Below the pieces are notes generated by a model, which was not told where the DNA came from, made no database searches, and saw only the letters and a program-made list of their open reading frames with translations. Shown here in pieces: positions 2,502-57,350 of a DNA stretch of 64,000 bases. A program made the translations under genes and the position numbers. The DNA comes from Scyliorhinus canicula (lineage: Eukaryota), in assembly GCF_902713615.1 (NCBI RefSeq), contig NC_052152.1, forward strand, positions 47,777,810 to 47,841,809, given 5' to 3'. Within the stretch, counting starts at the first letter, position 1. Each line of letters opens with the position of its first letter.

Positions 2502-5028
2502 TTAAGTTCTTTTCCCCAAATGATACCTCCTGTCACAAAACACCTGAACTACTTCACTTTTTACATCAGCTGTGAGAAATTCTTTTTCAATGCTTATTAA
2601 AGCCAGGTTGGTCAGTCGCTCCTGTGACATAGAAGACCTCAGATATGTTTTTATTAATTTCAGTTTTGAAAATGACCTTTCACAGCTTGCGACTGAAAAT
2701 GCGATTGTAAGCAGTAATCTGTATGAAACACACAGCGTCGGAAAGACATCCCTCCCATACTGCAGTAAAGACTCCAGAGCATCTTTAGGATCAGGGGGAA
2801 CTCTATTCCCTCCATCTCGAAGGAGCATCACAAAATCAATAATTTGGTCATATAACTGAATTGCAACCACATCATTGTCATAATAATTTGCAAAGTCTGA
2901 ACATTCCTTTTTTAATTTCTCTCTTTCTTGTTCATCTTCAATCACTCCTGAATTCAAGTTCAGAAGAAAAGAAAATCGGTCACTGAGTCTTTGAAGACGG
3001 ACACTGCGGTCTTCAATTTCAGTTTTTAATCTGTTCACAATCTCTACTATTACTCTATTCATTTCTTCTTGTGCCGTCAGTCCACTATCTCTTGCTGACT
3101 CTCCAGGCATTATTCTTCTTCTCCTTGTTCGTGCAATTGGTATTCCCCAATTTTGACAATATTCATTGGCTAAATCTATTGCATTGTGGATAATTTCGTC
3201 ATTCTTCAAATTCAAGATATGAATACGTCCTCTCAGATCACAAGAAGCTTCATGGAACCCCATTTTCGGATCCTGCAAACGTTTTGAGACTTTATCCACT
3301 GATGATAAAACTGAGTACCAAAAATTTAATAAAGCTATAAACGGGAACTGTTGAATAGAGTTCAGTAGCGATCCTGCATCAGATTTAGTTTCCCTTGAAA
3401 ATTCTCCTTCCAGCAGGTGTTGAAGGCTTGCAATAACGTTGTCACACTCTTCGTGGATTACTTGCACAGCATCATGGCTGGAACTCCATCTTGTGTCACA
3501 CTGTCTTTTCACAGTCCGAGTGACAAATGATTTTAACACTTCCCAACGAGAAGTAGATGAAGAAAAAAAAGTAGAGTTTTTCTAGAATGCCAAAAAATGT
3601 AACAACAACAGGTTGCACCTCACTTGCATGGACACAGGACAAATTGAGGCTGTGGTTCTCGCAGTTCACAAACACAGCTTTTGGGTTAACTTCAAGAATT
3701 TTTTGTTGAACACCTCCTCTCACTCCAGCCATAACTGCTGCGTTATCATATGCTTGACCACGACAGTCATTCATGGAAATTTTGTCTTCTTCCAATTTTT
3801 CCTGAATTTTATTTACCAGGCTGACTGCATCTTTCTTGTTGACTTGAAAAAATCCCAGAAATGTCTCCTTTATTTTTACTTTTCTGTTTTCATCAATATG
3901 AACGTAACGCAGAATTTCAGAAACCTGATCTTCATGGGCAATATCTGGAGTTGAATCCAGCATTATGCTAAAATATTTTGCGTCCTTAATTTCGGAAATT
4001 ATATTTTTCTTGACAGTTTCACCAAGAAGATTGATTATTTCGTTTTGAATTCTGTTGGACAAGTAGGTGACACTTTTTGGTTTCTCTTTCCCTCTCTGCA
4101 AGTGTTTTGCTAAGATGTCATCATATTTGGCCAAAAGTCTGATTGTTGCTAGAAAGTTTCCTGTATTTTCACTGACTGTCTCCGCTGGCTCTGATAACCC
4201 AGATATTCCTTCTCCTCGATGTCCACGAAGGGCCAGATTCTGTTTTGCCAGAAAGGATATAACCTCGACAATCCGTTCAGTTATAGCTTTCCATCTTTTC
4301 TTTTCAGCAGACATTTGCTGTTGAAGTTCAGCATCTATCGCAGTTGAATGATGGAGTCGAACTACAAGGTTCAGGTATTCCCTCATGTGAGCTCTATGAG
4401 AAGGGCTTTTCTCATGGTCAGGTATTGTTGGATTTAATTCTCTCCAAGTGGAGAAACCGTCTTCCTTTCCAAAGTTTGACACAGACGACAAATGCTCCTT
4501 TGAAAACAAAAAGCAAACAAAACAGTAGCATGTTTTCCGATATGGAGAGTATAACAACCATTTTCTCTCCACAATTTCTCCGTTTGTGGAAACTTTATCA
4601 AACCACTGTTTGGAAAATGATCTCCCATCCTTCTCAGCAAATGGACCACTTTTATTCTGATATCTTTCAGGGCCATGTTGTAATATTGTCATCTTCAAAT
4701 GATCTGGAATCGGTTTCTTCAAACAGCCAAAATCGCTTCTTTGCAAAAATATGCAAATATCTTCTTTATTTTCTTCACATGGATCATCATCCTGACAACG
4801 AGACTGAGGAGAGAGAGTATTATGTTCTGACCGAGCTGAATCCGTATCAGAAAAATCCTTCTCTGCACCCACATCATCTTTTACTTCTCCAGGTTCTCCT
4901 ACTTCTTCTTTACTTCTTTTTATCCATGCATCTAATGCCCCTCTTTGATGGGACTCTTCTTCGACTCTGGCCCTCTTTTTTTTCCTGTTCTGTGCTCCAC
5001 TCGGTTGCACACGAAATACTCGTAACAT
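2502..5028 (-). pseudogene. hAT transposase (ZMYM1-like: TTF zinc finger, DUF4371, C-terminal dimerization domain), split by one frameshift at the A8 run 3563-3570
   Basis: RKWLLYS..CYCFVCFLF, LALRGH, YFSIMLDSTPD, GQAYDNAAVM, CENHSLNL, DTRWSS, SVASCERSFSKLKLIKTYLRSSMSQERL. Confidence 0.92.
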
Positions 5029-5692
5029 TTCATTTTCTATCTCAAAAACCGTAAGACGCATGAGAAAATGGGAAGAAAATGGTAAACAATCGGTCAGTTG
5101 CAGACGGATAAACCATATTTCATTTCTTTGTTCCTTCGTATCAAATTATTTCACACTGATTCTCCACTGATAATTTTGTGCAATTTATATCATAGACTTG
5201 CAAATTAGTGGTATCTGTATTCGAATATTAGCATGTTAAGGAATAAATGTCTCCTATTCCGAGATTAAATGCCATAGCAGTCCTCTGATCATCCAGACTT
5301 TACTCTTACTACATCCCACGTAAATATTACATTAAATATCGCCAAAAAACCTATAAAAACCGTAGTTGCACCTGTTCTAGAGCTATTCACTGACCTGAGT
5401 AGGTAAAAGAACTAATCTAGATGCACAAAAAGCTGAAGAAAAGACGAGTTATGACTCGAGGAAACGCAGGAACGAACAGCCACGTCTGCTTGTTGCTTTT
5501 GATGGTTGCACCACGTACATCATGCGCATGCGTGTGGGGGGGATGGGGAGAAGGACCATTTTCTCTAGACAGAAAGGGTACACCATGTTAAAGGAATAAA
5601 GGGCTAACAACTGCCTCTGCAGTGTGGTGAGCCTCCAAAAATTGATTTATCACCGCTGAAATTTTAAAATTACTATCTTATTTCCTTCTCTG

Positions 5693-11285: not shown

Positions 11286-12918
11286 TGATGTGACCATCAA
11301 TTCACTCGAGACACGAGAGGAAGTAAACTGTGGCTTTAATAGACTTACAACTGAGCCTGCCTGCGACTAGAAGAACTGAGGGCAGACTCACAAGACTGCA
11401 GAACTTTATACTTCCGGTAGTGGAAGGGGCCATGGGCGGAGCCAAGGGTGGAGCCCTGTACAAGCTCCTCATCTCCCGTGGGCAGAGCTGCGCAATGGCT
11501 CACAGACAGAGCCCACAAGGACACAATGCTATATAGTGTGAATTAAGCAATATACATTCACCCCCTATAAAAAAATCAAGTCTGGCGGGGGTGAAGGGTC
11601 TAGAGATTGAGCCGGTCCGGTGGTCGGGTCGTCCGCTGAGATCGGCGGAGCACTGGGGTTGCAGCCTCTTCAGATGGCTGTGTGCTGACGGGCGGTGTGG
11701 ATCTGAGGGTTGTTCGTTCAGAGCTTTGTTCCTGACGGGTGCGACGGGTGAAGGGGGGTGCAGGAAACCTGTAGGCGGGGGTGCACAGGGCGTGGGGGGT
11801 GTGGTGTGAGGGGTACCTCGGCGGTGGTGGTGGTGGATCATGCAGGCGCCAGGTCCTGGAGGGAAACGGTTTCCTGATGGCCGTCGGGGTGTTCTATAAA
11901 GGCGTAGTGTGGGTTTGAGTGTAGCAGTAGTACCCTTTCTACTAGTGGGTCCGTTTTATGTGTCCGGATGTGCTTCCGGAGGAGAACTGGGCCCGATGTC
12001 CTCAATCAAGATGGGAGCGAAGCCCCCGTGGTAGTGCCCCTAGGGAAAACAAATAATCGCTCGTGTGGGGTCTGGTTAGTGGCCATGCACAGGAGGGACC
12101 TAATTGCATGGAGCACATCGGGGAGGACCTCCTGCCAGTGGGAGGTCGGGAGATTCCTCGACCGTAGGGTCAGTAGGACGGTCTTCCAGACCGTCGCGTT
12201 CTCCCTCTCCACCTGCCCGTTCCCCCTGGGGTTATAGCTGGTAGTCCTGCTCGAGGCAATGCCCTTGTCGAGCAAGTACTGACGCTCGTCGCTCATGAAG
12301 GATGAACCCCTGTTGCTGTGTATGTAGCTGGGGAAGCCAAACAGGGTGAAGACACTGTGCAGGGCTCTTATGACTGTGTGGGAGGTCATATCGGGGCATG
12401 GGATAGCAAACGGAAACGGGAGAATTCGTCTATGACGTTGTGGAAATGCACATTTCGATTGGTCGAGGGGAGTGGCCCTTTGAAATTGATGCTCAGGCGT
12501 TCAAAGGGCCGGGAAGCCTTTACCAGGAGGGCCTTGTCTGGTCTATAGAAGTGTGGTTTGCTTTCCGCGCAGATTGGGCAATCCCTGGTGATGGCTTTTA
12601 CCCCCTCGGTGGAGAAAGGCAGATTCCGGGCGTTGATGTAGTGGGCGAGCCGGGTGACCCCCGGGTGGCAGAGGTCATTGTTGATAGCCTGTAATCGGTT
12701 GTCTTGCGCGCTGGTGCATGTGCCGCAGGACAGGGCATCTGGGGGCTCGTTGAGTTTCCCCGGCCAATATATGATGTCATAATTATAGGTGGAGAGTTCG
12801 ATCCTCCACCTCAAGATTTTATCATTTTTTATTTTGCCCCGCTGCGAGTTGTCGAACATGAAGGGAACCGATCTCTGGTCGGTGGTGAGGGTAAACCTCC
12901 TACCTGCGAGGTAGTGCC
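11286..12918 (-). mobile_element. Gypsy-type LTR retrotransposon 3' remnant: RNase H end, integrase, PPT and 275-bp LTR (11286-11560)
   Basis: LRWRIELSTYNYDIIY, LCHPG..CPIC, NPRGNGQVER motifs; G-run PPT abutting an LTR reading TG..CA on the minus strand. Confidence 0.85.
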
Positions 12919-12921
12919 TGG

Positions 12922-14290
12922 TGAATGTATATTGCTTAATTCACACTATATAGCATTGTGTCCTTGTGGGCTCTGTCTGTGAGCCGTTGTGCGGCTCTGC
13001 CCACAGAGGGAAATGAGGAGATAGGACAGGGCCCACTTGGTCAAGGCTTCTAGGCCCTTTGAACGCCTTGCGATCGATTTCAAAGGGCCACTCCCCTCCA
13101 CTAACAAGAACATTTATTTCCTCAACATCGTAGGTGAGTTCTCCCGATTCCCTTTTGCCATTCCGTGCCCCGACGTGACCTCCCATACAGTCATTAGGGC
13201 CCTGCATAGTGTCTTCACCCTGTTCGGTTTCCCTAGCTACGTGCACAGCGACCGGGGTTCGTCCTTTATGAGCGATGAGCTGCGCCAGTACCTGCTCGAC
13301 AAGGGCATCGCCTCGAGCAGGACTACCAGCTGCAACCCCAGGGGGAACGGGCAGGTGGAGAGGGAGAATATGACGGTCTGGAAGACCGTCCTACTGACCC
13401 TCCGGTCTAGAAAACTCCAAGTCTCCCAATGGCAAGAAGTCCTCCCAGACGCGCTCCATGCAATTAGATCACTCCTCTGTACAGCGACCAATCAAACCCC
13501 TCACAAGCGGCTCTTCATTTTTTCTAGGGGCACTACAACGGGGGTCTCACTTCCGGCGTGGCTGAGGACACCAGGCCCGGTTCTCCTGAGGAAGCACGTC
13601 AGGGCGCACAAAACCGACCCCCTTGTTGAAAAGGTGCGCCTCCTCCATTCCAACCCCCAGTACGCATTCGTGGAGTTCCCTGACGGTCGCCAGGTCACAG
13701 TATCCCTTCGGGACCTGGCACCCGCTGGATCCAACCCCCCCCCTACCCCCACTGAAGAACCCCTTACCCCATTCCCTATGCTGCCGCCCCCTCGCGCCCC
13801 CGATTCCACAAGCTCGCCCCACCGGTTCCACGCACCAGCACCAGCCCGCCCCCAGTCTCCGGTCGAGCCAGAGGTGTATGAATTTTGGACGAGACCCGCC
13901 ACGGAGTCTGCCATCGTACCCCAGCTCTCAACACCCACCCAGCCACCGCAAGAGGCTGCAACCCCAGTGCTCCGCAGATCGCAACGAACAATTCGTTCAC
14001 CGGACAGACTAACTCTGTGAGCCACCACCCCGCAGGACTTGATTTTTTTCGCACTACCTGGCCACCAGGGGCAGTAGCTCTGGGAGTACTCGAGAGTTTG
14101 TTCTGGGCTCCCCCCTTGGCTCCGCCCAGAACTCCTCCCCCTGGAGCTGCTGTATAAAGATCCGTGCCACAGAGTCAGCCAGCACGTTCACCGAAAGTTC
14201 AACGGCTAACAGGCTGGCTCTGTTGTAAGTATATTAAAACTGCTATTCTACTCCTACAAGCATGTGTCCGTAGAATTGATGGTTCCATCA
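12922..14290 (+). mobile_element. Related Gypsy remnant in opposite orientation: LTR 5' piece (12922-13019), integrase, partial LTR (about 14050-14290)
   Basis: The first about 100 bp are the reverse complement of 11465-11560; ends AATTGATGGTTCCATCA, like the other LTR. Confidence 0.8.
13037..14020 (+). pseudogene. Retrotransposon integrase core (rve) open frame, 5'-truncated
   Basis: PFERLAIDFKGPLP, HSDRGSSF, NGQVERENMT (D,D35E); Pro-rich tail ending LRRSQRTIRSPDRL. Confidence 0.85.
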
Positions 14291-23452: not shown

Positions 23453-24757
23453 AAGAACAAAAAGAACAAAGAAAAGTACAGCACAGGAACAGGCCCTTCG
23501 ACCCTCCAAGCCTGTGCTGACCATGCTGCCCGTCTAAACTAAAATTGTCTACAATTCCGGGGTTCGTATCCCTCGATTCCCATCCTATTCATGTATTTGT
23601 CAAGATGCCCCTTAAATGTCACTATCGTCCCTGCTTCCATCACCTCCTCTGGCAGCGAGTTCCAGCATCCACTACTCTCTGCATAAAAAAACATCCCTCG
23701 TACATCTCCTCTCAACCTTGCCCCTCGCACCTTAAACCTATGCCCCCTAGTAATTGACCCCTCTACCCTGGGGAAAAGCCTCTGACTATCCACTCTGTCT
23801 ATGCCCCACATAATTTTGTAGACCTCTATCAGGTCGCCCCTCAACCTCCTTCGTTCCAGTGAGAACAAATCAAGTTTATTCAACCTCTCCTCATAGCTAA
23901 TGCCCTCCATACCAGGTAACATCCTGGTAAATCTCTTCTGCACCCTCTCTAAAGCCTCCACATCCTTCTGATAGTGTGGCAACCAGAATTGAACACTATA
24001 CTCCAAGTGTGGCCTAACTAAGGTTCTATACAGCTGCAACATGACTTGCCAATTTTTATACTCAATGCCCCGGCCAATAAAGGCAAGCATGCCGTATGCC
24101 TTCTTGACTACCTTCTCCACCTGTGTTGCCCCTTTCAGTGACCTGTGGACCTGTACACCTAGATCTCTCTGACTGTCAATACTCTTGAGAGTTCTACCAT
24201 TCACTGTATATTCCCTACCTGCATTAGACCTTCCAAAATGCATTACCTCACATTTGTCCGGATTAAACTCCATCTGCCATCTCTCCGCCCAAGTCTCCAA
24301 ACAATCTAAATCCTGCTGTATCCTCTGACAGTCCTCATCGCTATCCACAATTCCACCAATCTTTGTGTCATCTGCAAACTTACTAATCAGACCAGTTACA
24401 TTTTCCTCCAAATCATTTATATATACTACGAACAACAAAGGTCCCAGCACTGATCCCTGCGGAACACAACTAGTCACAGCCCTCCAATCAGAAAAGCATC
24501 CTTCCATTGCTACTCTCTGCCTTCTATAACCTAGCCAGTTCTGTATCCATCTCGCCAGCTCACCTCTGATCCCGTGTGACTCCACCTTTTGTACCAAACT
24601 GCCATGAGGGATCTTGTCAAAGGCCTTACTGAAGTCCATATAGACAACATCCACTGCCCTACCTGCAACAATCATCTTTGTGACGTCCTCGAAAAACTCT
24701 ATAAAGTTAGTTAGACACGACCTCCCCTTCACAAAAATGTACTGCCTCTTGCTAATA
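23453..24757 (-). mobile_element. Young 5'-truncated CR1 LINE with a 397-aa RT frame (23539-24732)
   Basis: YMDFSKAFD, PQGSVLGP, KFADDTK, DLGVQV; repeated GAACAAA 3' end. Confidence 0.95.
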
Positions 24758-26968: not shown

Positions 26969-27963
26969 TAGAACAAAGAACTAAGAAACGTACAGCACAG
27001 GAACAGCCTCTTCGTCCCTCCAAGCTAGTGCCAACCATGCTGCCAGACTACACTACAATCTTCTACACATCCTGGGTCCGTATCCCTCGATTCCCATCCT
27101 AGTCATGTATTTGTCAAGATGCCCCTTAAATGTCACTATCGTTCCTGCTTCCACCACCTCCTCCAGCAGTGAGTTCCAGGATCCACTACCCTCTGCATAA
27201 AAAAATTGCCTCGTTCATCTCCTCTCAACCTTGCCCTTCGCACCTTAAACCTATGCCCCCTAGTAATTGACCCCTCTACCCTGGGGAAAAGCCTCTGACT
27301 ATCCACTCTGTCTATGCCCCACATAATTTTGTAGACCTCTATCAGGTCGCCCCTTAACCTCCATCGTTTCAGTGAGAACAAACAAAGTTTATTTAACCGC
27401 TCCTCATAGCTAATGCCCTCCATACCAGGCAACATCCTGGTAAATCTCTTCTACACCCTCTCTAAAGCCTCCACATCCTTCTGGTAGTGTGGTGACCAGA
27501 AGTGAACACAATACTCCAAGTGTGGCCTAACTAAGGTTCTATACAGCTGCAACATGACTTGCCAATTCTTATACTCAATGCCCCGGCCAATGAAGGCAAG
27601 CATGCCGTATGCCTTCTTGACTACCTTCTCCACCTGTGTTGCCCCTTTCAGTGACCTGTGGACCTGTACACCTAGATCTCTCTGACTGTCAATACTCTTG
27701 AGGGTTCTACCATTCACTGTACATTCCCTACCTGCATTAGACCTTCCAAAATGCATTACCTCACATTTGTCCGGATTAAACTCCATCTGCCATCTCTCCG
27801 CCCAAGTCTCCAAACGATCTAATTCCTGCTGTATCCTCTGACAGTCCTCATCGCTATCCGCAATTCCACCAATCTTTGTGTCGTCTGCAAACCTACTAAT
27901 CAGACCAGTTACATTTTCCTCCAAATCATTTATATATACTACGAACAGCAAAGGTCCCAGCAT
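26969..27963 (-). mobile_element. Second 5'-truncated copy of the same CR1 subfamily
   Basis: Nearly identical to 23453-24450. Confidence 0.93.
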
Positions 27964-30830: not shown

Positions 30831-31803
30831 TGTTGCTCGTTTTACTAGAGTGTGATTAACACGCCTCTGTTTAAAGGCCTTGTGCTTAACACTGCTATGG
30901 CTCTGTATGTGTAATTATGCTCGGAGTCGCCAGGTGCCGTATTGAGACACCGTCACAAGTATATCAAGGTCAGGTTCAAATTAATAAATCCGTACACCGA
31001 TTAGTAAGTCCAAACGATTGGTGTTTATTATAACAAATATAATAAATACACATGCATACGCTAAAGAGACTAACTTACTTCTAATACTAAACAACTAAAT
31101 ACTTATCTAGACAGGAACAGGCAAGGTCAGGGAACAAGGCCTTCGTCCCGTTCTTGGTCTGCAACTTTCTGATTCGTAAAGTTGTCAAGATCTAGCAAGG
31201 TCTGGATCACGTAGCGATCGTTGTATTGGCACTTACAGTTCGATGGCTGAGGCTCAACGGCTGGTGATGAAACTGGAGTCAGGATGCGATGTAACAAGTC
31301 TGGGCCGGAGCAAACAACAGACTTGGGCCGGAGCAAGCAAGCAGACCGAACCATGTGCGGGGTCTACTCTTATTAGGTCCTAGAAGTCCGTGCCCCCTTG
31401 GGGCGGTTCTTTCACCTGCCAGGTATCAATTGGGCCTCTCCCAATCGATATCTTCCAAACTCCCCAATCTGAGGGTCGTTCCTCGATGGGTGGGGCGGTC
31501 CCTACGGCTCTTTGTGTTGGTTGCTGTGGCGCCATTCTGTCTGGGCTTCTACGGAAAAGTATCCATCGATACTTAAATGTTTCTATTGTGCGGGGTCTGG
31601 ATCTGGATCACCTCATTACTATGCAGATCTGTTTCCCATTTGCACCTTTGGCTGAAACTCTGCACCTGGCCAGAAACTGGTTTCTGTACGTGCAGAATGC
31701 AAATTAGTCTTCTGCAAGCTGCTTGTCCTCACTAAGACTGTTTTTCCCTGCAGCCTTAGCAGTTCTCCATTTTGTAGCCCAGTGTCCATCTTAGATGGCT
31801 ACA
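30831..31803 (-). repeat. 3' LTR (973 bp)
   Basis: TG...CA termini; preceded on the minus strand by PPT GAGGATCACAAGGAGGGAA; AATAAA at 31024-31029. Confidence 0.97.
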
Positions 31804-32171
31804 TTCCCTCCTTGTGATCCTCACAAGAAATTGTGAAGGATCACCTATGCACGTTTCTTCGAGTGCCTTTGGGTGCCCTCTTTGGGTTCCCTGACCTTAG
31901 CAAGTTCCTGGGCGTCTACGCTGTCTTTAACTATGGCAAGAAAATTTTTATCTCACAGTTCTACTTGGCGCTATGTCAAAGGGAACATGCATTACCAATA
32001 ACCGGGAACCTCTACCTATCACAACTACTATCCTTATCTCATTTTAAACATTTTATTACAGTCTAAAAACATTATCCATTCACACCACATTACATATCAC
32101 TTTCTGACTCAGCAGTCGAGGTCAGAACAATATAATACATTAGTGTCTTCTTTATTAACATATTGCTTTAT

Positions 32172-32516
32172 TCATTTCCTAGGCCGTTGGGGGGATTGGT
32201 GAAAACCGAAAATAGGGGATTGAACTCCGTAAATGGTTGAGGGGCAGGAACGGAAGGCTCTCCTTTTCCATTTCGTCAACCTGAGGGTCTGTACAATGAT
32301 GCAGAGAATTGCAATCACCAACAGTGATTCAATCACGTACGACATTGAGTACCATGTCATGAATTTTGTGCACCAGGTCTGAACCTCGCTGATCAGAGCT
32401 GAGCACAGGGAAGTTGATGTGAGGGAAACATTAACGGCGGGGGTTGTGGGGGAAACGTGACTTGCTTCCACATATACAAATACAACATTTAATAGTAATA
32501 GGTAGGCTTCCGTCAT
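32172..32516 (-). CDS. Small type I membrane protein (114 aa) in the env position
   Basis: ACCATGA start; signal peptide, NVS sequon, Cys pair, TM helix VIESLLVIAILCIIVQTL, polybasic RLTKWKRRAFR. Confidence 0.7.
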   Translation of the reverse strand: MTEAYLLLLNVVFVYVEASHVSPTTPAVNVSLTSTSLCSALISEVQTWCTKFMTWYSMSYVIESLLVIAILCIIVQTLRLTKWKRRAFRSCPSTIYGVQSPIFGFHQSPQRPRK

Positions 32517-33349
32517 GGTCTTCTCTTCGTTCTCTTTGTCCTCTTCCTTCTGTATGGCCGATCCTTGCCGTGAACCCTCTTTCGTCTTTCGAAAGCTATG
32601 GGATCAAGCACAGTATCTGTCAATACACAGTTTAATATCCGTACTTGTTAGTGTATCTGTCCTCTCATTCCAATTGACCCTTAAATGACTGGCCAAGTCA
32701 CACCCTGTGACTCCCCTCATTTTTTTTTTTCAAAAGCGAATTTAGGAGCAGAAATACACCTAACAACTTTCCTCCTATGAGTTCTCTCGCAGGCTTTCCA
32801 AATTTACCATCCGAATGTTCCTGGATGTAAATAGCATGTGGGATGGCTGCCTAAGGGCTACCTAACAAAAAATGAAAGCAAATTTTGAACCAAAAAGGTC
32901 GAATGGGTTGCGTATGGGCCGCTACGGGTAAGATTTGAATGGAGTCCCCGGGTAGGGCGTGCTGTGCCATACCCGAGCTTGGCTGACCAAAGTGGGTTCT
33001 CAGACAGGGCGGGTCCTCAGTGCCGTTTCTCCACTGCCTGAGTAACCTGGAATGAACGGGCAAGAATGTGTTAACCGTGGGATTGCAGCCTCTATTCACC
33101 GAATAGAGGGGCACCTAAAAAACAAGGGAGGAGGCAAGATGCTCCTTGCAAAAAGTTGAGCTGTGCTCCAGACATTTTAGCCATCTTGTGAGGTGGTCAC
33201 AATCTTTTCAGCTGAAAAGATCTGCAATCAAACCCTTAATATATTAACAAGCAAACAAACACAAACAAACAAACAAACATACGTGCAGGTTCCATCAGAA
33301 AGGATATCGCTTCCCTCAAGCGGTTCCTATTTTACATCATCTGGACACC

Positions 33350-36300
33350 TCACTTTTCCTCTGCCTCTGTGAACAGGGTCACAAAGGGGTTGCCGTATCG
33401 GGAGTCAGACACCGTGTCGCCCTGCTCTCCCGGATCCCACACCCTTGTGTGGATCAGGCATGCAATCTTGGAATTATGCGACCGGGGGTCACTTTCATCA
33501 TTACGGACAAGTCTGTATGAATTGTCCCTGTGCCAAAGTGTGGGGTCTAAACTTGAAGGTGTATTGTCGGGTTCATCGGGGTCGGGTGGTGCGTCAGGGT
33601 ATTTAACGTAGGTGACCTCCATGGGGTCACTGGAGTCGGGGTCGTAGTCGCTACAGTGTGGGCTGTAGGGTTGTGTGCTGTGGCTGTCCTCAAAGTCAGT
33701 GTCAGTATCGCTGTCTCTGCTGTGGCAGCTTGTGGGCGTTTCGGGGCGTGGTCTGTTGTGGTCAGTGGGCGGAATCGTGGGCGAGTCCGATGATGAACTG
33801 GTCTGTGAGGGGGATGGTGGAAACGTGTCTCTAGTGGGCGGGGCGAGATGTTCTGCTGCGTCTAGCAGGATATGGTGTGCGTGGTTAGACTGTGTTCCAT
33901 ATGCCTGTAGTTGGTTAATATAGAACCACGCAGTCTTTCCATTGGGGTATTTTATCCTGTAAACTGAGGGGCTAATTTTGTCCGAAATTGAATACGGGCC
34001 TGAAAATTTTGGTGCCAAAAAACTGCTGGGGTTATACACAGATAGCATTACCTGTTGCCCAACCTGAAATTCTGTGGGGTGTACGTTCTTATTAAAGCAA
34101 GCTGTGCTTTGTTTGCGTCGTTTGCCCAGTTGAACTGCGGCTGCGATCTGTGCAGACCTCACAGTCTCAACTAGGTCTTTAACAGCTTTTTCATGTGTGA
34201 GGGCTGTCACTTCGGGGCTAGTCATGTCCTGTCCTAAAAGGAATTCTGTACCTTTCATAGGGCGTCCGGTCATGAGTGTGTGTGGGGTGAATCCTGTGGA
34301 TGTTGAAACCGTGTTGCGGATAAACATTAGTGCAAATGGGAGTACCGAATCCCATGTAGAATTGTTTTCCTGAACCATTTTTCTAAGGGTCGATTTTAGG
34401 GTCCGATTCATGCGCTCTACAATCCCGCTGGATTGTGGGTGATACGCAATGTTAAAATTTTGTTTAATGCCGAATATGGTCAGGATGTTCTTCATGACAC
34501 GTCCTGTGAAGTGAGATCCCTGGTCTGAATCTATACTTCTGGGTAAACCCCATCTCGTGAAGATGTGGTGGGTCAGGATCTTTGCAGCTGTCTTAGCTGT
34601 ATTTGTTCGTGAGGGGAATGCCTCTACCCATTTGGTAAAGGCATCAATTACAACCAGCACGTATTTATAAGCCATTCCTACAAGGGGGCAATGGTCCTAT
34701 AAAGTCGATCTGGAGGTTTGTCCAGGGGCCATTAACTGGTCGAGTATGCCGAAGCTGTGCCTTTTTGGAATACCTCTCCGGGTTATTCTGGGCGCAAATA
34801 AGGCAATTCTCGATGTAACGGGTAGCATCGGTCCTTAAATTAGGCCACCAATAGAGTTGCCTGAGGTGCCTCGTGGTCGGGTCGATCCCTTGATGTCCAT
34901 GACCGTCATGGAACAAGGCAATCATTTGATTTCTATCCTGTTGCGGGACCACATAAAGCTGGTCCTTGATGATCACACCCTCATGTGTGGTCAAAGCGTG
35001 TACTGTGGCACAAAAGTCCCTTTAAAAATCTCCCTGAGATCTTCATCCTGCTTCTGTGCCTCGGCTAAATCTTTAATGTCCGTCTGTGAGACTTGAACTG
35101 CACTCACAGGGGCGCTAGCTGGTGCGCTAGCTGGGGGTGCCCAACAGTGTCCTCGCCTGGAACCTGCTTTTGCCAGTGCGTCGGCTTTTACATTTTCAGG
35201 GGGGGGATGACCTATGGTGGCTTCTAACTTTGATAATTCCAAAGGTCCTATCCTTCGCTTTGTCTAGGATGTGGCGGAGTAAAGAGGCTGATGGAAGGGG
35301 TTTCCCGTCTGCGGAGACAAAACTTCGTGTCCTCCACAGGGGTAGAAAATCCGTTAAACTGTTGCAAACATATAGACTGTCCGAATATATGTCTGCCGGG
35401 CTGGGGAAAGAATCGGGGTGGTCCACTATGTAAGCTATAGCCACGAGCTCTGCTGCCTGCGCGCCTAAGTGACCTGGCAATTTTAAAGCTATTTCTTCGA
35501 GTGCGCGACCCTGCGCGTCCTCGACATAGATGCCGCATCCAGTGATACGCTCACCATCTAAAACTGTGGATGAACCGTCCACGTATATCTTCAGTGGGCC
35601 ACACGTGTCTGTGTGTTGGGGGCTTTGTCTTGGGTTCCCTATCTTCCTGGGAGGTGTCTTCGCTATGAAGGGTCCTGTGTTGTGTAGGGGTGCTACAATT
35701 TCGCATTCATGGGGCTGCCCTGGATATTGGAGGTTGTCGGCTAAAAATGTGTGTGTCCGGGTCCGTTTTACCGTAATGTCCCGTCCTTGTAAAAGTAATG
35801 TCCACCTAGCTGCCCTAATCTGGCTAACTGAACCGTCCTTCAGTCGACCGCCTAGGAGTAACTGTGTGGGGGTGTGCTCGGTCAAAATGGTGATGGGGTT
35901 GAGTCCGGTAATGTAGGAAAAGTATTGAACTGCCCAGAAAACTGCTAGGAGGTGCCTCTCGCAGGCTGAGAATCCTTGTTCTACTGGGTCTAAAAGTCTT
36001 GAGGCATAAGCCATGGGTCGTAGCTGCTCGTGCCGTTCCTGGAGTAACACGGCCGAGAGGGTTAGATCAGTGCTCGCTACCTCTATTGCATAGGGGGAGA
36101 GTTGGTCTGGGACTTGTAGCGCGGGTGCTGCGCTAAGGGCTTTCTTTAGATCTTCCACAGCCTCTGTATGCTGCGGAAGCCATTCCCATGGGGCTCCTTT
36201 CTTAAGGAGGTCTGAGAGTGGGGCTGCCTTTGTCGCGAATCCATCGATATGGTTCCGACAGTACCCAACCAATCCTAAGAACGACCGGAGGGCTGAAACA

Positions 36301-37575
36301 TTCTGGGGAAGGGGCAATTTGACAATCGAATCAATCCTTTTGAATTTGATCTCGCGTTTGCCGTGCGTGATGACTGTACCCAAATATATCACTTTATTTT
36401 CCAATATCTGGGCCTTTCTGGGGTTAACTTTACATCCAATCGAGGTTAAACGTTCCAGGAGCTCGGCCAGAAGCGTAATGTGCTCTGCCTTGGTGTCTGT
36501 CTGCAGTAATAGGTCGTCCACATACTGTACCAGACATTCGGGGCGGGAAAATTTTACTAAACCATTTGCCAGCTGTCGGTGGAAAATGGAGGGGAAATTG
36601 TGGAATCCTTGTGGGAGGCATGTCCACGTATACTGCTGTGCTTTGAATGTGAAGGCAAATTTGTACTGGCACGCCTTTGCCAATGGGATTGACCAGAAGC
36701 CATTGCTAATGTCCAATACCGTGAAATATTTGGAGTGGAGTCCCTGTTTGAGCATGGTCTCGGGACTTGTTGCTACCGTGGGGGCGACTGCTGGGGTTAT
36801 TTTGTTGAGCTCCCGATAATCGATGGTCAGACGCCATGATCCGTCGGGCTTTCTCACTGGCCAAATAGGAGCATTATTGGTCGAGGCTACTGTCCTAAGT
36901 ACACCTTGCTCCAATAAGCTATCTATTACTTTCCCTATTTCTCCCTCTGCTTCTAGGGGAAATCTGTACTGTTTCTGTGGTCGGGGGTCAGGTCCGGTAA
37001 CTTGAACTTGTCCAGTCATTCTGCCGCAGGCGTGCCGGTGACTGGCAAATGCTGTCCTGTGTTTGTTTAAAACTGCTGTCACTTGTTTGTCCATGCTTAG
37101 TGTAGTCAGGTCGAAAGAATAGTCGCCTACTGCGCTAATCCTATTCGCATACTCTCCTACTGTGAGAGTAGCGGGTGCTCTGTCTGACCTTGCCATTCGC
37201 CAGACACACTGGTTTACTGGGTCGAACGACAGGCTATGGGCATTCATAAAGTCTATTCCCAATATGTGTTCTGCTGTACGGGGAAGATTTACTAAAACGA
37301 CGGGGTGTTTGGTAGAGATGTTCCTTAGCTGGATTGCTACGGGGGGCTGTAATGTGTCCCTGCTGTGAGTGACCTGTAAAACCGCTAAGTGTGATGGTGG
37401 AGGTGGTCGGCCACGTGTCTGCCTGTGCCGTGGTGGTGGAATTAATTGTGGTGTGGGACCCTCCTGTGTCCCAAAGTAACTCTATGGGCTTCCCTCTAAC
37501 CTTTGCTGTGACTACCGGTCTTCCGGATTGATCCCAAAGAGTGTCACAGACCCAAGTGGGGGAGCCCGAACACCG
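33350..37575 (-). pseudogene. pro-pol: protease, RT, tether, RNase H, integrase; about 4 frameshifts
   Basis: LLWDTGG; LDISNGFW, LPQGF, QYVDD; IEVAST..YASR tether; YVDGSS..AQAAEL..YSDS..KADALAK; HDGHGH..CLIC; DSDQGSHF..VERMNRTLK. Confidence 0.93.
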
Positions 37576-55939: not shown

Positions 55940-57350
55940 TTAAGAATTTATAGCATTATCTACAATGGTGCCATCAACAAGGTTTCTTGAATTTATTGAA
56001 GTGTTGGAGGACATTTCTTCTGTTTTTCTGGCATATTCTTTGCTACCATCCAATGACTCAAGAGTTCCTGATCCATTGTTTCCCATTATCTTGCACCGCG
56101 TGTCATTTCCTGTATCGCAATTCTGAAGAGGGATCAAAACATTGTGCTTCATCAAAAAATCATCGCTATATTTGGCTTCCACTGAATTTCGCCTCCTCAT
56201 GCTCCTGCTAACAGTTGCATATCTTCCAGTTTCCTCAAAACTTAGGGATAAGGTGACAGTTCCGCTGCCAAAACTGACCTTCTGCTTACTGCACCTTGGT
56301 ATCTCCATGGTGATTGGTTCATCATGGGCGTTTCTGCTACAGATTGAAGATGATGGAGAAGAGACAGTTGAACCACCAATACTATTGGACCTCTTACGGG
56401 ATAAGGTACTGCGTCGCAAAGTTGCCCTGGCTGCTACTTTAAAAGCATGGGCAGCTGTACTACATCTCACTTCTTCAATGGTATTTCTTGATGGTTTAAA
56501 CAAAATTATATAGCATTTGTTAAAATAAATGCATCCAAGCAACCCAAAACTTGATGCAAGTATGGCAATGACTTCAACAGCTGAAACAAATTTCCCGTAA
56601 GTGCTCACATAAGCAGGGATGAATGAGATCCAGACTATGAAAAATATCAGCATGCTGAAAGTAATAAATTTGGCCTCGTTGAAATTCTCTGGGAGTTTGC
56701 GAGACTTAAAGGCAAAAAAGAAGCAAATGGCAGCAAGGAGGCATGTGTAACCGATGAGAAACCCAAGCGCCATCAGAGAACCTTCATCACACGTAATAAA
56801 ATTATTTCATCTTCTAGTTCATGGTTTCTGTAGCTTGAAGGGGGTGCTGTATAAAGCCAGATGACACAAGTAACTATTTGCACAAGAATACAGAGGAAAA
56901 CCAGTAAGAATTGCAAATTGAGGCCCACCCACTTTCGATGAAGGCTGGTTGGGATCTTTGCCTCGAAGACTAATAGTACGCGATTCGTTTTCACCAGAAT
57001 GCAAGAAATGCACAGCACAAAGCTGATTCCAAACGCAGGCTGACGCAATCTACAAGTCCAATCTCTTGGTTCTCCAATAAAAATCAATGAGCTGGAAAAG
57101 CAGCAGATTAAGGAGAAGAGGAGGAGATAGGACAGTTCTCTGTTAGTGGCTTTCACAATAGGAGTATTTCTGAACTTAATGAATACGCCCAAAACAAAGG
57201 AAGTCATCAGTATTCCTAGAATGGCAAATATTGTCAGAGCAATTCCAAAAGGTTCAGTCCATGATAGGTATTCAATCTCCTTGGCAATGCATGATGTATG
57301 ATTCTCATTTGACCAAAAATCATTGGGACACTTTGTGCATGCACTTGCAT
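55940..57350 (-). CDS. CASR: Calcium-sensing receptor last exon (end of Cys-rich domain, 7TM, C-tail), with an apparent 1-bp deletion at 56798-56801
   Basis: [80 protein letters not shown]. Confidence 0.95.

Follow-up and report, generated by a model that had tools for sequence, protein, structure and literature searches.

Loss of env is usually viewed as turning an endogenous retrovirus (ERV) into a purely intracellular retrotransposon whose env slot decays. An LTR element in a 64-kb window of the Scyliorhinus canicula genome (the window being the whole stretch of 64,000 nucleotides analysed) raises the question of what else can happen to this slot. A preliminary description of the locus had noted that no env-sized ORF lies between the pol stop and the polypurine tract, and had proposed that an intact small ORF found there encodes a membrane protein similar to the FAST fusogens of reoviruses. 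Is this ORF a gene, what kind of element carries it, and what might its product do? The absence of env from the window element was confirmed: no env-sized ORF was detected in the 1,550-base gap, either sense or antisense. The features of the element are collected in Table 1.

Table 1. Features of the LTR element and of its small ORF, in window positions.
Feature	Position	Strand	Remarks
LTR element, whole	40594 to 30831	-	5' LTR start to 3' LTR end
5' LTR (TG...CA)	39623..40594	-	blastn self-match and sequence
TATA-like box in 5' LTR	near 40166-40161	-	sequence
Candidate major splice donor GTAAGT, R region	40023..40028	-	in 61 of 63 copies listed, exon side variable
Primer-binding site (TGG start)	39600..39617	-	
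gag	37576..39311	-	one zinc knuckle, no Gly2 myristoylation signal
pol	33350..37575	-	protease, RT (YVDD), tether, second RNase H, integrase
Conserved non-coding block	32785..33088	-	73-78% identity to most divergent subfamily
Candidate branch point and two acceptors (AG 32618-17, 32597-96), then purine-rich leader	32596..32653	-	
Small ORF, 114 aa, predicted type I membrane glycoprotein	32172..32516	-	
Predicted signal peptide, aa 1-18	32463..32516	-	11-residue hydrophobic core, small residues at -3/-1
Ser/Thr/Pro-rich ectodomain with N-glycan sequon, aa 19-46	32379..32462	-	variable, weakly constrained
Juxtamembrane helix and TM, aa 47-78	32283..32378	-	conserved
Cytoplasmic basic patch (aa 79-89) and tail	32175..32282	-	topology predicted
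Polypurine tract	31804..31813	-	ends at 31804
3' LTR	30831..31803	-	blastn self-match

The window element possesses the retroviral order PR-RT-tether-RNase H-IN, paired LTRs, a primer-binding site, a polypurine tract and a short target-site duplication (four bases, ACTC, flanking the element on both sides). Judged by the identity of its LTRs (98.9% over 973 columns of a blastn self-match), it is young. Its gag is split by a frameshift and its pol, which matches the Pfam families RVT_1, RT_RNaseH, RNase_H and rve, is interrupted at several places before the stop codon at 33352-33350 (-). Among 80 copies fetched from the genome (see below), gag was open over about 581 aa in 24. The gag frame closes with a UGA (37578-37576, -), the next codon being CGG, and the protease continues in the same frame. 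This arrangement suggests readthrough of the stop codon instead of a frameshift, in agreement with the open pol frames, 1,408-1,411 codons long, of other copies. The integrase tail (33353-33895, -) comprises about 180 Ser/Asp/Pro-rich residues, and the primer-binding site occurred in several discrete variant forms among copies.

The best database relatives of pol were frog and coelacanth proteins (46-50% identical), and the closest named virus by RT was snakehead retrovirus (56% over about 179 aa). Two RT trees were built, one with all 94 rows and another, used with an AU test, with 28 of the 94; Loki labels came from the supplement of PMC7947760. The window sequence fell within Retroviridae and apart from Metaviridae, in a clade of 17 rows that also holds the snakehead, epsilon- and gamma-like ones (100/99 support), where it belonged to an unresolved basal group with the frog, coelacanth and snakehead retrovirus rows. 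By these sequence criteria we class the element as a retrovirus proper, not a Gypsy-type retrotransposon. The absence of env leaves this membership intact; ERVs commonly lose env. Assignment to clade Huo, as outlined in PMC6001957, is graded as likely because the tree rows included no foamy or ERV-L reference.

A lokiretrovirus had been suggested by the dual RNase H and by the NYNRIN-like labels, and placement in one clade with the five Loki rows was rejected (AU p = 0.012). As far as lokiretroviruses are covered in the accessible text of PMC7947760, they share with the element a tether plus RNase H and relatives labelled NYNRIN-like in databases, but the catshark RT lies outside the Loki clade, the element has no paramyxovirus-F-like env, and the hosts listed in that text include no cartilaginous one. 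Snakehead retrovirus and its endogenous relatives (Huo, PMC6001957; CmiERV lineage I of elephant shark, PMC4422223) are similar in their dual RNase H and non-myristoylated Gag, and also resemble the window element in that candidate splice sites are numerous 3' of pol. The catshark family lacks env, however, whereas an env frame of 1,134 codons is present in snakehead retrovirus and CmiERV-I is described as being defined by the presence of env (PMC4422223). Another ERV, reported from a catshark genome, ERV-Spuma.0-Sca, is apparently a different element, with a 2,259-base gag, a 2,946-base pol, a 1,326-base third CDS and a different LTR start in the partly legible sequence of PMC10699275. The present family may already be named in Repbase or Dfam.

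We estimated the abundance of the family by searching the S. canicula genome. First-look candidates numbered 5,254 with the small ORF as query and 6,533 with the integrase, totals that serve as rough guides and not as copy counts, as only 150 candidates were scored in each search. Eighty copies were fetched out of the 150 integrase matches; because they were picked by integrase, this sample was not chosen for the small ORF. The ORF was present in 75 of the 80 copies, the other five being truncated before reaching it, and was open in 56 of the 80 by a strict pattern. LTR pairs could be compared for 54 of the 80 copies and differed by 0 to 3.9%, with two pairs identical. The preliminary description had allowed for the ORF being a deletion remnant of a full env retained in other copies. 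No env was found in the 74 copies with both landmarks (0/74), whose longest stop-free frame was 227 codons and in which the pol stop and the 3' LTR were 1,466-2,443 bases apart. A further 20 loci were picked by snakehead RT; seven were truncated or interrupted, and the 13 divergent copies that reach the region all carry a short ORF (13/13, 40-87% identity) and no env (0/13). Searches for env-bearing relatives were likewise negative: a snakehead TM (env) query gave no match in the genome, in a search run without a positive control, the snakehead Env matched only itself in a database search, and a metagenome scan with RT returned nothing. Thus, the ERV is high-copy and env-less among the copies examined.

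The same short design was retained in subfamilies down to 41% identity. In a second subfamily the small protein is 75% identical to that of the window, and at least 150 copies encode 100% identical small proteins; when 30 of its copies were compared, they showed 94-98% DNA identity to the first one, and their sequences point to a recent burst. The most divergent subfamily also comprises at least 150 copies. Six copies of it have large internal pol deletions and keep the small ORF together with most or all of the non-coding block; they are possibly non-autonomous derivatives. In a DNA run labelled as a second organism, contigs covered all 30 bins of window positions 31810-40594, small ORF included.

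Selection on the ORF was assessed in 74 copies over codons 1-108, with CpG changes excluded. The rationale was that copies drift neutrally after insertion, whereas variants common to several copies arose in replicating lineages; variants found in at least three copies were treated as shared and counted once per site, with full independence lacking. Singletons numbered 76 nonsynonymous, 29 synonymous and five stop (omega 0.92). Shared variants numbered 22, 35 and zero, respectively (omega 0.24; Fisher p = 4.4e-5 vs singletons). For comparison, shared variants gave an omega of 0.08 in gag and in RT and of 0.38 in the integrase tail (p = 0.0003), 1.9 and 1.7 in the two other sense frames over the ORF, and about 1 to 2 in its flanks; one antisense frame carried a weaker shadow (0.79). 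In a sliding scan from pol to the LTR, the synonymous excess among shared variants appeared only over the small ORF and in its frame. Within the ORF, aa 38-59 had no shared replacement vs six synonymous changes and aa 90-108 had one vs eight. The only indel common to at least three copies within codons 1-107 was a single one of three bases, and none broke the frame; by contrast, 25 shared indels lay in the upstream flank (380 bases) and 26 in the downstream flank (357 bases), most of them frame-breaking.

In pairwise comparisons of the window with 23 intact natural copies, dN/dS ranged from 0.08 to 0.45 overall, from 0.16 to 0.98 over residues 1-45 and from 0.04 to 0.25 over residues 46-110. 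Since these copies were chosen for protein similarity, with three candidates excluded, the set is biased to intact frames. The ORF was also retained across subfamilies with synonymous distances above 1 and in a second catshark species. It is more than a chance ORF, because purifying selection is confined to its frame, and is a real gene under purifying selection. The check on conservation and dN/dS among copies that the preliminary description had called for therefore came out in favour of the gene, and that description was supported in so far as this shark retroelement lacks env and has, in its place, a working gene for a small membrane protein. Two extensions of the coding sequence were considered: an N-terminal one through 28 open upstream codons is not needed, since these contain shared frame-breaking indels (p = 0.2), and a second coding exon in 33113-32860 was rejected, because N/S there was neutral and indels broke the frame.

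The product is predicted to have one TM, a mature ectodomain of about 40 residues and type I topology. A good Kozak context had been noted; ACCATGA is indeed present in the window, but ACC precedes the ATG in only 55 of the 74 copies. The signal peptide proposed earlier was supported, in that the N-terminus is hydrophobic (mean of the core 1.6-3.1 in eight members) and looks cleavable. The N-terminal hydrophobic stretch and the small -3/-1 residues, judged by eye, persist in all subfamilies despite sequence change, which fits a cleaved signal peptide. The ectodomain (43-61% S/T/P) carries one or two sequons. Of the Ser/Thr-rich ectodomain with an NVS sequon and a Cys pair described before, the sequon at aa 29-31 proved nearly constant (N29 and S31 in 24 of 25 aligned members) and the pair did not: Cys38 was found in seven of the 25, so that Cys49, present in all 25, is normally unpaired. 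Similarly, one further hydrophobic helix was present as described, but its Cys72 was found in only 21 of 25 members and is replaced in several close copies.

Thirteen residues were invariant in the 25 members (W48, C49, F52, W55, Y56, Y60, E63, L66, A69, K82, W83, Y96 and P101), and Q76 (24/25), F103 and F105 (23/25 each) nearly so. The best hydrophobic 19-mer was aa 57-75 (mean hydropathy 2.39), and most invariant residues between 48 and 66 lay within about 140 degrees of the helical wheel. Both AlphaFold2 models predicted one long helix from about aa 37 to 90 (mean pLDDT 64) and coil beyond residue 90. The hydrophobic moment was modest before the TM (0.36-0.45) and reached 0.51-0.83 in the endodomain, where the peak coincides with the basic patch, where four to six Lys/Arg occurred within 12 positions after the TM in 8/8 members. 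The polybasic stretch and the short Pro-containing tail were as described earlier; the last four residues of the window copy are unlike those of other copies.

We searched for homologues of the small protein with several approaches. Only four gene models, from two Scyliorhinus species, were found among 1.84 billion representatives. A protein search with the ORF alone gave no match among 10 candidates of 62-200 aa, Pfam, PDB sequences and IMG/VR yielded nothing significant, viral folds gave no match at E <= 0.001, and all Atlas matches lay below the 0.9 mark. The sub-threshold leads were adenovirus E3A (E 0.03-0.045 in five of 19 members) and M2 (0.80-0.86 in Atlas), and such sub-cut-off family matches fit a generic TM composition. 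With respect to an origin from env, profile comparison with the snakehead Env gave a probability of 0.5%, and no SU domain, furin site, fusion peptide or heptad repeats were found in the small protein sequence. The gene has Env-like features in its position after pol, its candidate splice acceptor, predicted signal peptide, TM anchor and tail; it may be an env that has lost nearly all of its ectodomain, or a captured gene. No prior report of a small TM gene in an env-less vertebrate retrovirus was found in the literature searched (mostly open-access). By these searches the small proteins represent a new family of retroviral proteins, with no homologue detected outside the catshark models and previously unremarked in that literature. 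One HEPACAM2-like gene model ends in the juxtamembrane helix, TM and basic patch of the ORF, and three other host gene models splice into its exon, so the gene models raise the possibility of exonisation, with host proteins gaining a viral membrane anchor.

Expression of the gene would probably require splicing. The candidate acceptors just upstream noted earlier were well conserved: each of the two YAG sites, 32619-17 and 32598-96, was present in 73 of 74 copies, and most branch-point bases matched in at least 90% of the 74 copies, one in 80-89%. In the other subfamilies the first acceptor was retained in 30/30, 7/11 and 22/24 aligned copies and the second in 1/30, 10/11 and 21/24. In two NCBI gene models, the match to the respective locus starts with the codon that straddles the second acceptor. 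A leader donor at 39439 was not conserved. No canonical spliced joint to the acceptors was found in contigs of three presumed RNA runs, a result made uninformative by the collapse of multi-copy contigs, and a search for the pattern of spliced retrocopies gave six matches vs 21 for the control, i.e., chance level. For one copy resembling a spliced form, a nested LTR insertion was the simpler explanation. A donor-like site just past the pol stop and several acceptor-like sites (33281 to 32860, -) suggest, from sequence, multiply spliced RNAs in the style of complex retroviruses. Upstream of the ORF, the conserved non-coding block had neutral N/S and frame-breaking indels, and was conserved across subfamilies more strongly than the pol tail. 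Its alignment fold contains hairpins and scored -36.9 vs -13.5 +/- 3.4 for shuffles (0/40 shuffles as low), with compensatory change in only two of 38 pairs. The block is a candidate RNA cis-element for export or packaging.

Three kinds of known systems resemble the catshark ERV in part. Env-less superspreaders such as IAP are reported to combine env loss with very high copy number and recent bursts, reached via plain intracellular retrotransposition (PMC10536682); unlike theirs, the env slot of the catshark ERV is neither empty nor decaying and holds a small gene under purifying selection. The sORF2 of Drosophila MDG1-group elements, as presented in the main text of 10.1101/2025.03.14.642691, is also a short, selected single-TM protein with a basic patch behind the TM in an env-less LTR element. 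This protein of Metaviridae is about 70 aa long, often carries a myristoyl group and is encoded upstream of gag on RNA that is not spliced, whereas the catshark ORF, of 114 aa, lies downstream of pol behind candidate acceptors in a member of Retroviridae and has a predicted signal peptide and sequons. The same text places sORF2 with capsids at follicle-cell protrusions into the oocyte, which gives a precedent for the transfer reading below, but reports no cell fusion in heterologous assays. The reovirus FAST proteins p10, p14 and p15, as covered in PMC7830690, share a size of 100-200 aa, a short ectodomain, one TM, a basic motif and a disordered tail, but their TM is a reverse signal anchor and their ectodomain fusion peptide is myristoylated or a cystine loop, neither of which was seen in the catshark protein. 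No sequence or fold similarity to FAST proteins was found. The likeness to FAST drawn in the preliminary description was thus not supported in detail: the Cys pair is not conserved, no myristoylation motif (MGxxxS/T) occurred in any of the eight members tested, the N-terminus resembles a signal peptide, and the Ser/Thr/Pro-rich ectodomain with its sequons evolves fast. The protein may act like sORF2 or FAST; it is a member of neither family.

Selection demonstrates function, not which function. As it acted on replicating lineages, it implies that the element itself gains from the protein in reaching new germline sites. Given its position in the env slot and the constraint seen on either side of the membrane, substitution for Env is the simplest role for this membrane protein. 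The reading we favour, though tentatively, is that it is a minimal Env stand-in helping capsids pass between touching cells and ultimately into the germ cell. The mRNA would be spliced from the donor in the R region to one of the two acceptors (32617 or 32596), and the product would enter the ER by its signal peptide, become N-glycosylated in an N-out/C-in topology and be delivered to the surface with the aid of the basic patch. The one-sided invariant face (W48, C49, F52, W55, Y56, Y60, E63, L66) might mediate self-association or partner binding, possibly with an inter-chain disulfide at the unpaired C49. The conserved tail could bind Gag or a host trafficking or actin adaptor, a step proposed because Gag has no myristoylation signal and may need a membrane-protein partner. 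Local membrane contact or fusion would then let capsids through. Long follicle-cell processes in sharks might serve as a transfer route, a point on which our literature search found no paper. Constraint centres on the Trp/Tyr-rich juxtamembrane helix, TM, basic patch and tail, by analogy the parts that matter functionally in FAST proteins according to PMC7830690. Against transfer stands the ectodomain, which is variable, mucin-like in sequence and unlike a FAST fusion peptide, as well as the modest pre-TM hydrophobic moment and the lack of fusogen or env homology in our searches; also, since env-less ERVs reach high copy number intracellularly, copy number requires no transfer protein (PMC10536682).

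Other explanations were weighed against the same data. Somewhat unlikely, but not far behind the favoured reading, is that the protein is an accessory factor of the producing cell, comparable to Vpu, adenovirus E3 or influenza M2, in an element that spreads by intracellular retrotransposition; acting through its TM face and tail, it would eliminate or redirect a host protein of restriction or immunity, or it would form a small channel. A glycosylated stalk, an invariant TM Glu and an unpaired Cys suit TM-to-TM binding or a channel. The nearest exogenous relative, snakehead retrovirus, is described as complex, with several small accessory ORFs (PMC12193657), but the small protein resembled none of the snakehead-retrovirus frames (best E 0.36). 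The E3A and M2 leads are weak, lying below the cut-off and explicable by generic TM composition, and a benefit common to thousands of copies per cell would be easily lost, yet the gene was kept in 75 of 80 copies. An assembly anchor is an unlikely option: here the protein would draw the non-myristoylated Gag to ER or endosomal membranes and particles would mature there and re-enter the same nucleus, with no intercellular step. Foamy-virus capsids need the help of Env to be targeted to membranes, and the ER is where IAP and ERV-L particles form; the missing Gly2 of Gag and a cytoplasmic tail among the most constrained parts agree with such a role. However, the outside helix (aa 47-60) is constrained as strongly as the tail and 24 of 25 members retain the sequon; a purely inner anchor has no obvious need of either.

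Descent from a fish reovirus or nackednavirus, which would make the protein a true FAST or sORF2 member, is very improbable. Its size, single TM and basic patch match, and sORF2-like proteins are reported from fish nackednaviruses (10.1101/2025.03.14.642691); the predicted cleavable signal peptide in place of a reverse signal anchor, the missing myristoylation motif, the inconstant Cys pair and the restriction of database matches to four catshark models, with none in IMG/VR, speak against it. Least credible, and largely refuted, is a functionless env remnant or chance ORF that is conserved via an overlapping RNA element. Part of the core does fold slightly better than shuffles (z = -2.0), but synonymous sites of the core vary freely (dS up to 1.7) and replacements are rare, singletons are neutral and shared variants are not, and the neighbouring RNA block behaves quite differently.

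If capsids do move between cells by means of the small protein, the envelope-free route of insect Metaviridae would extend to vertebrate Retroviridae, and a minimal design of fusogen or transfer protein would be added. The bolder proposition, that a Retroviridae lineage swapped Env for a membrane protein of roughly 96 residues carrying capsids from somatic into germ cells, seems to us somewhat unlikely. If true, this would give Retroviridae a first route of cell-to-cell transmission that needs no envelope, differing in design from insect sORF2 and reovirus FAST while convergent with both; this soma-to-germline route would then have driven thousands of catshark germline insertions, some very recent. 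In either case, a small gene for a membrane protein occupies the env slot of a catshark ERV, and selection has maintained it during a long radiation of subfamilies and in two species. The transfer reading is testable, given that catsharks can be bred in the laboratory and that the invariant residues of this short gene are sharply mapped.

The window also contains features outside the ERV. A class C GPCR (Pfam 7tm_3), which we take to be calcium-sensing-receptor-like, is represented by exon pieces at 55940-57207 (-), with the ERV lying about 15 kb past their 3' end. Other mobile-element ORFs, presumably resembling hAT transposase, Gypsy integrase pieces and CR1-type RT, were located at 2502-5061 (-), 12006-14020, 23539-24675 and 27451-27963.
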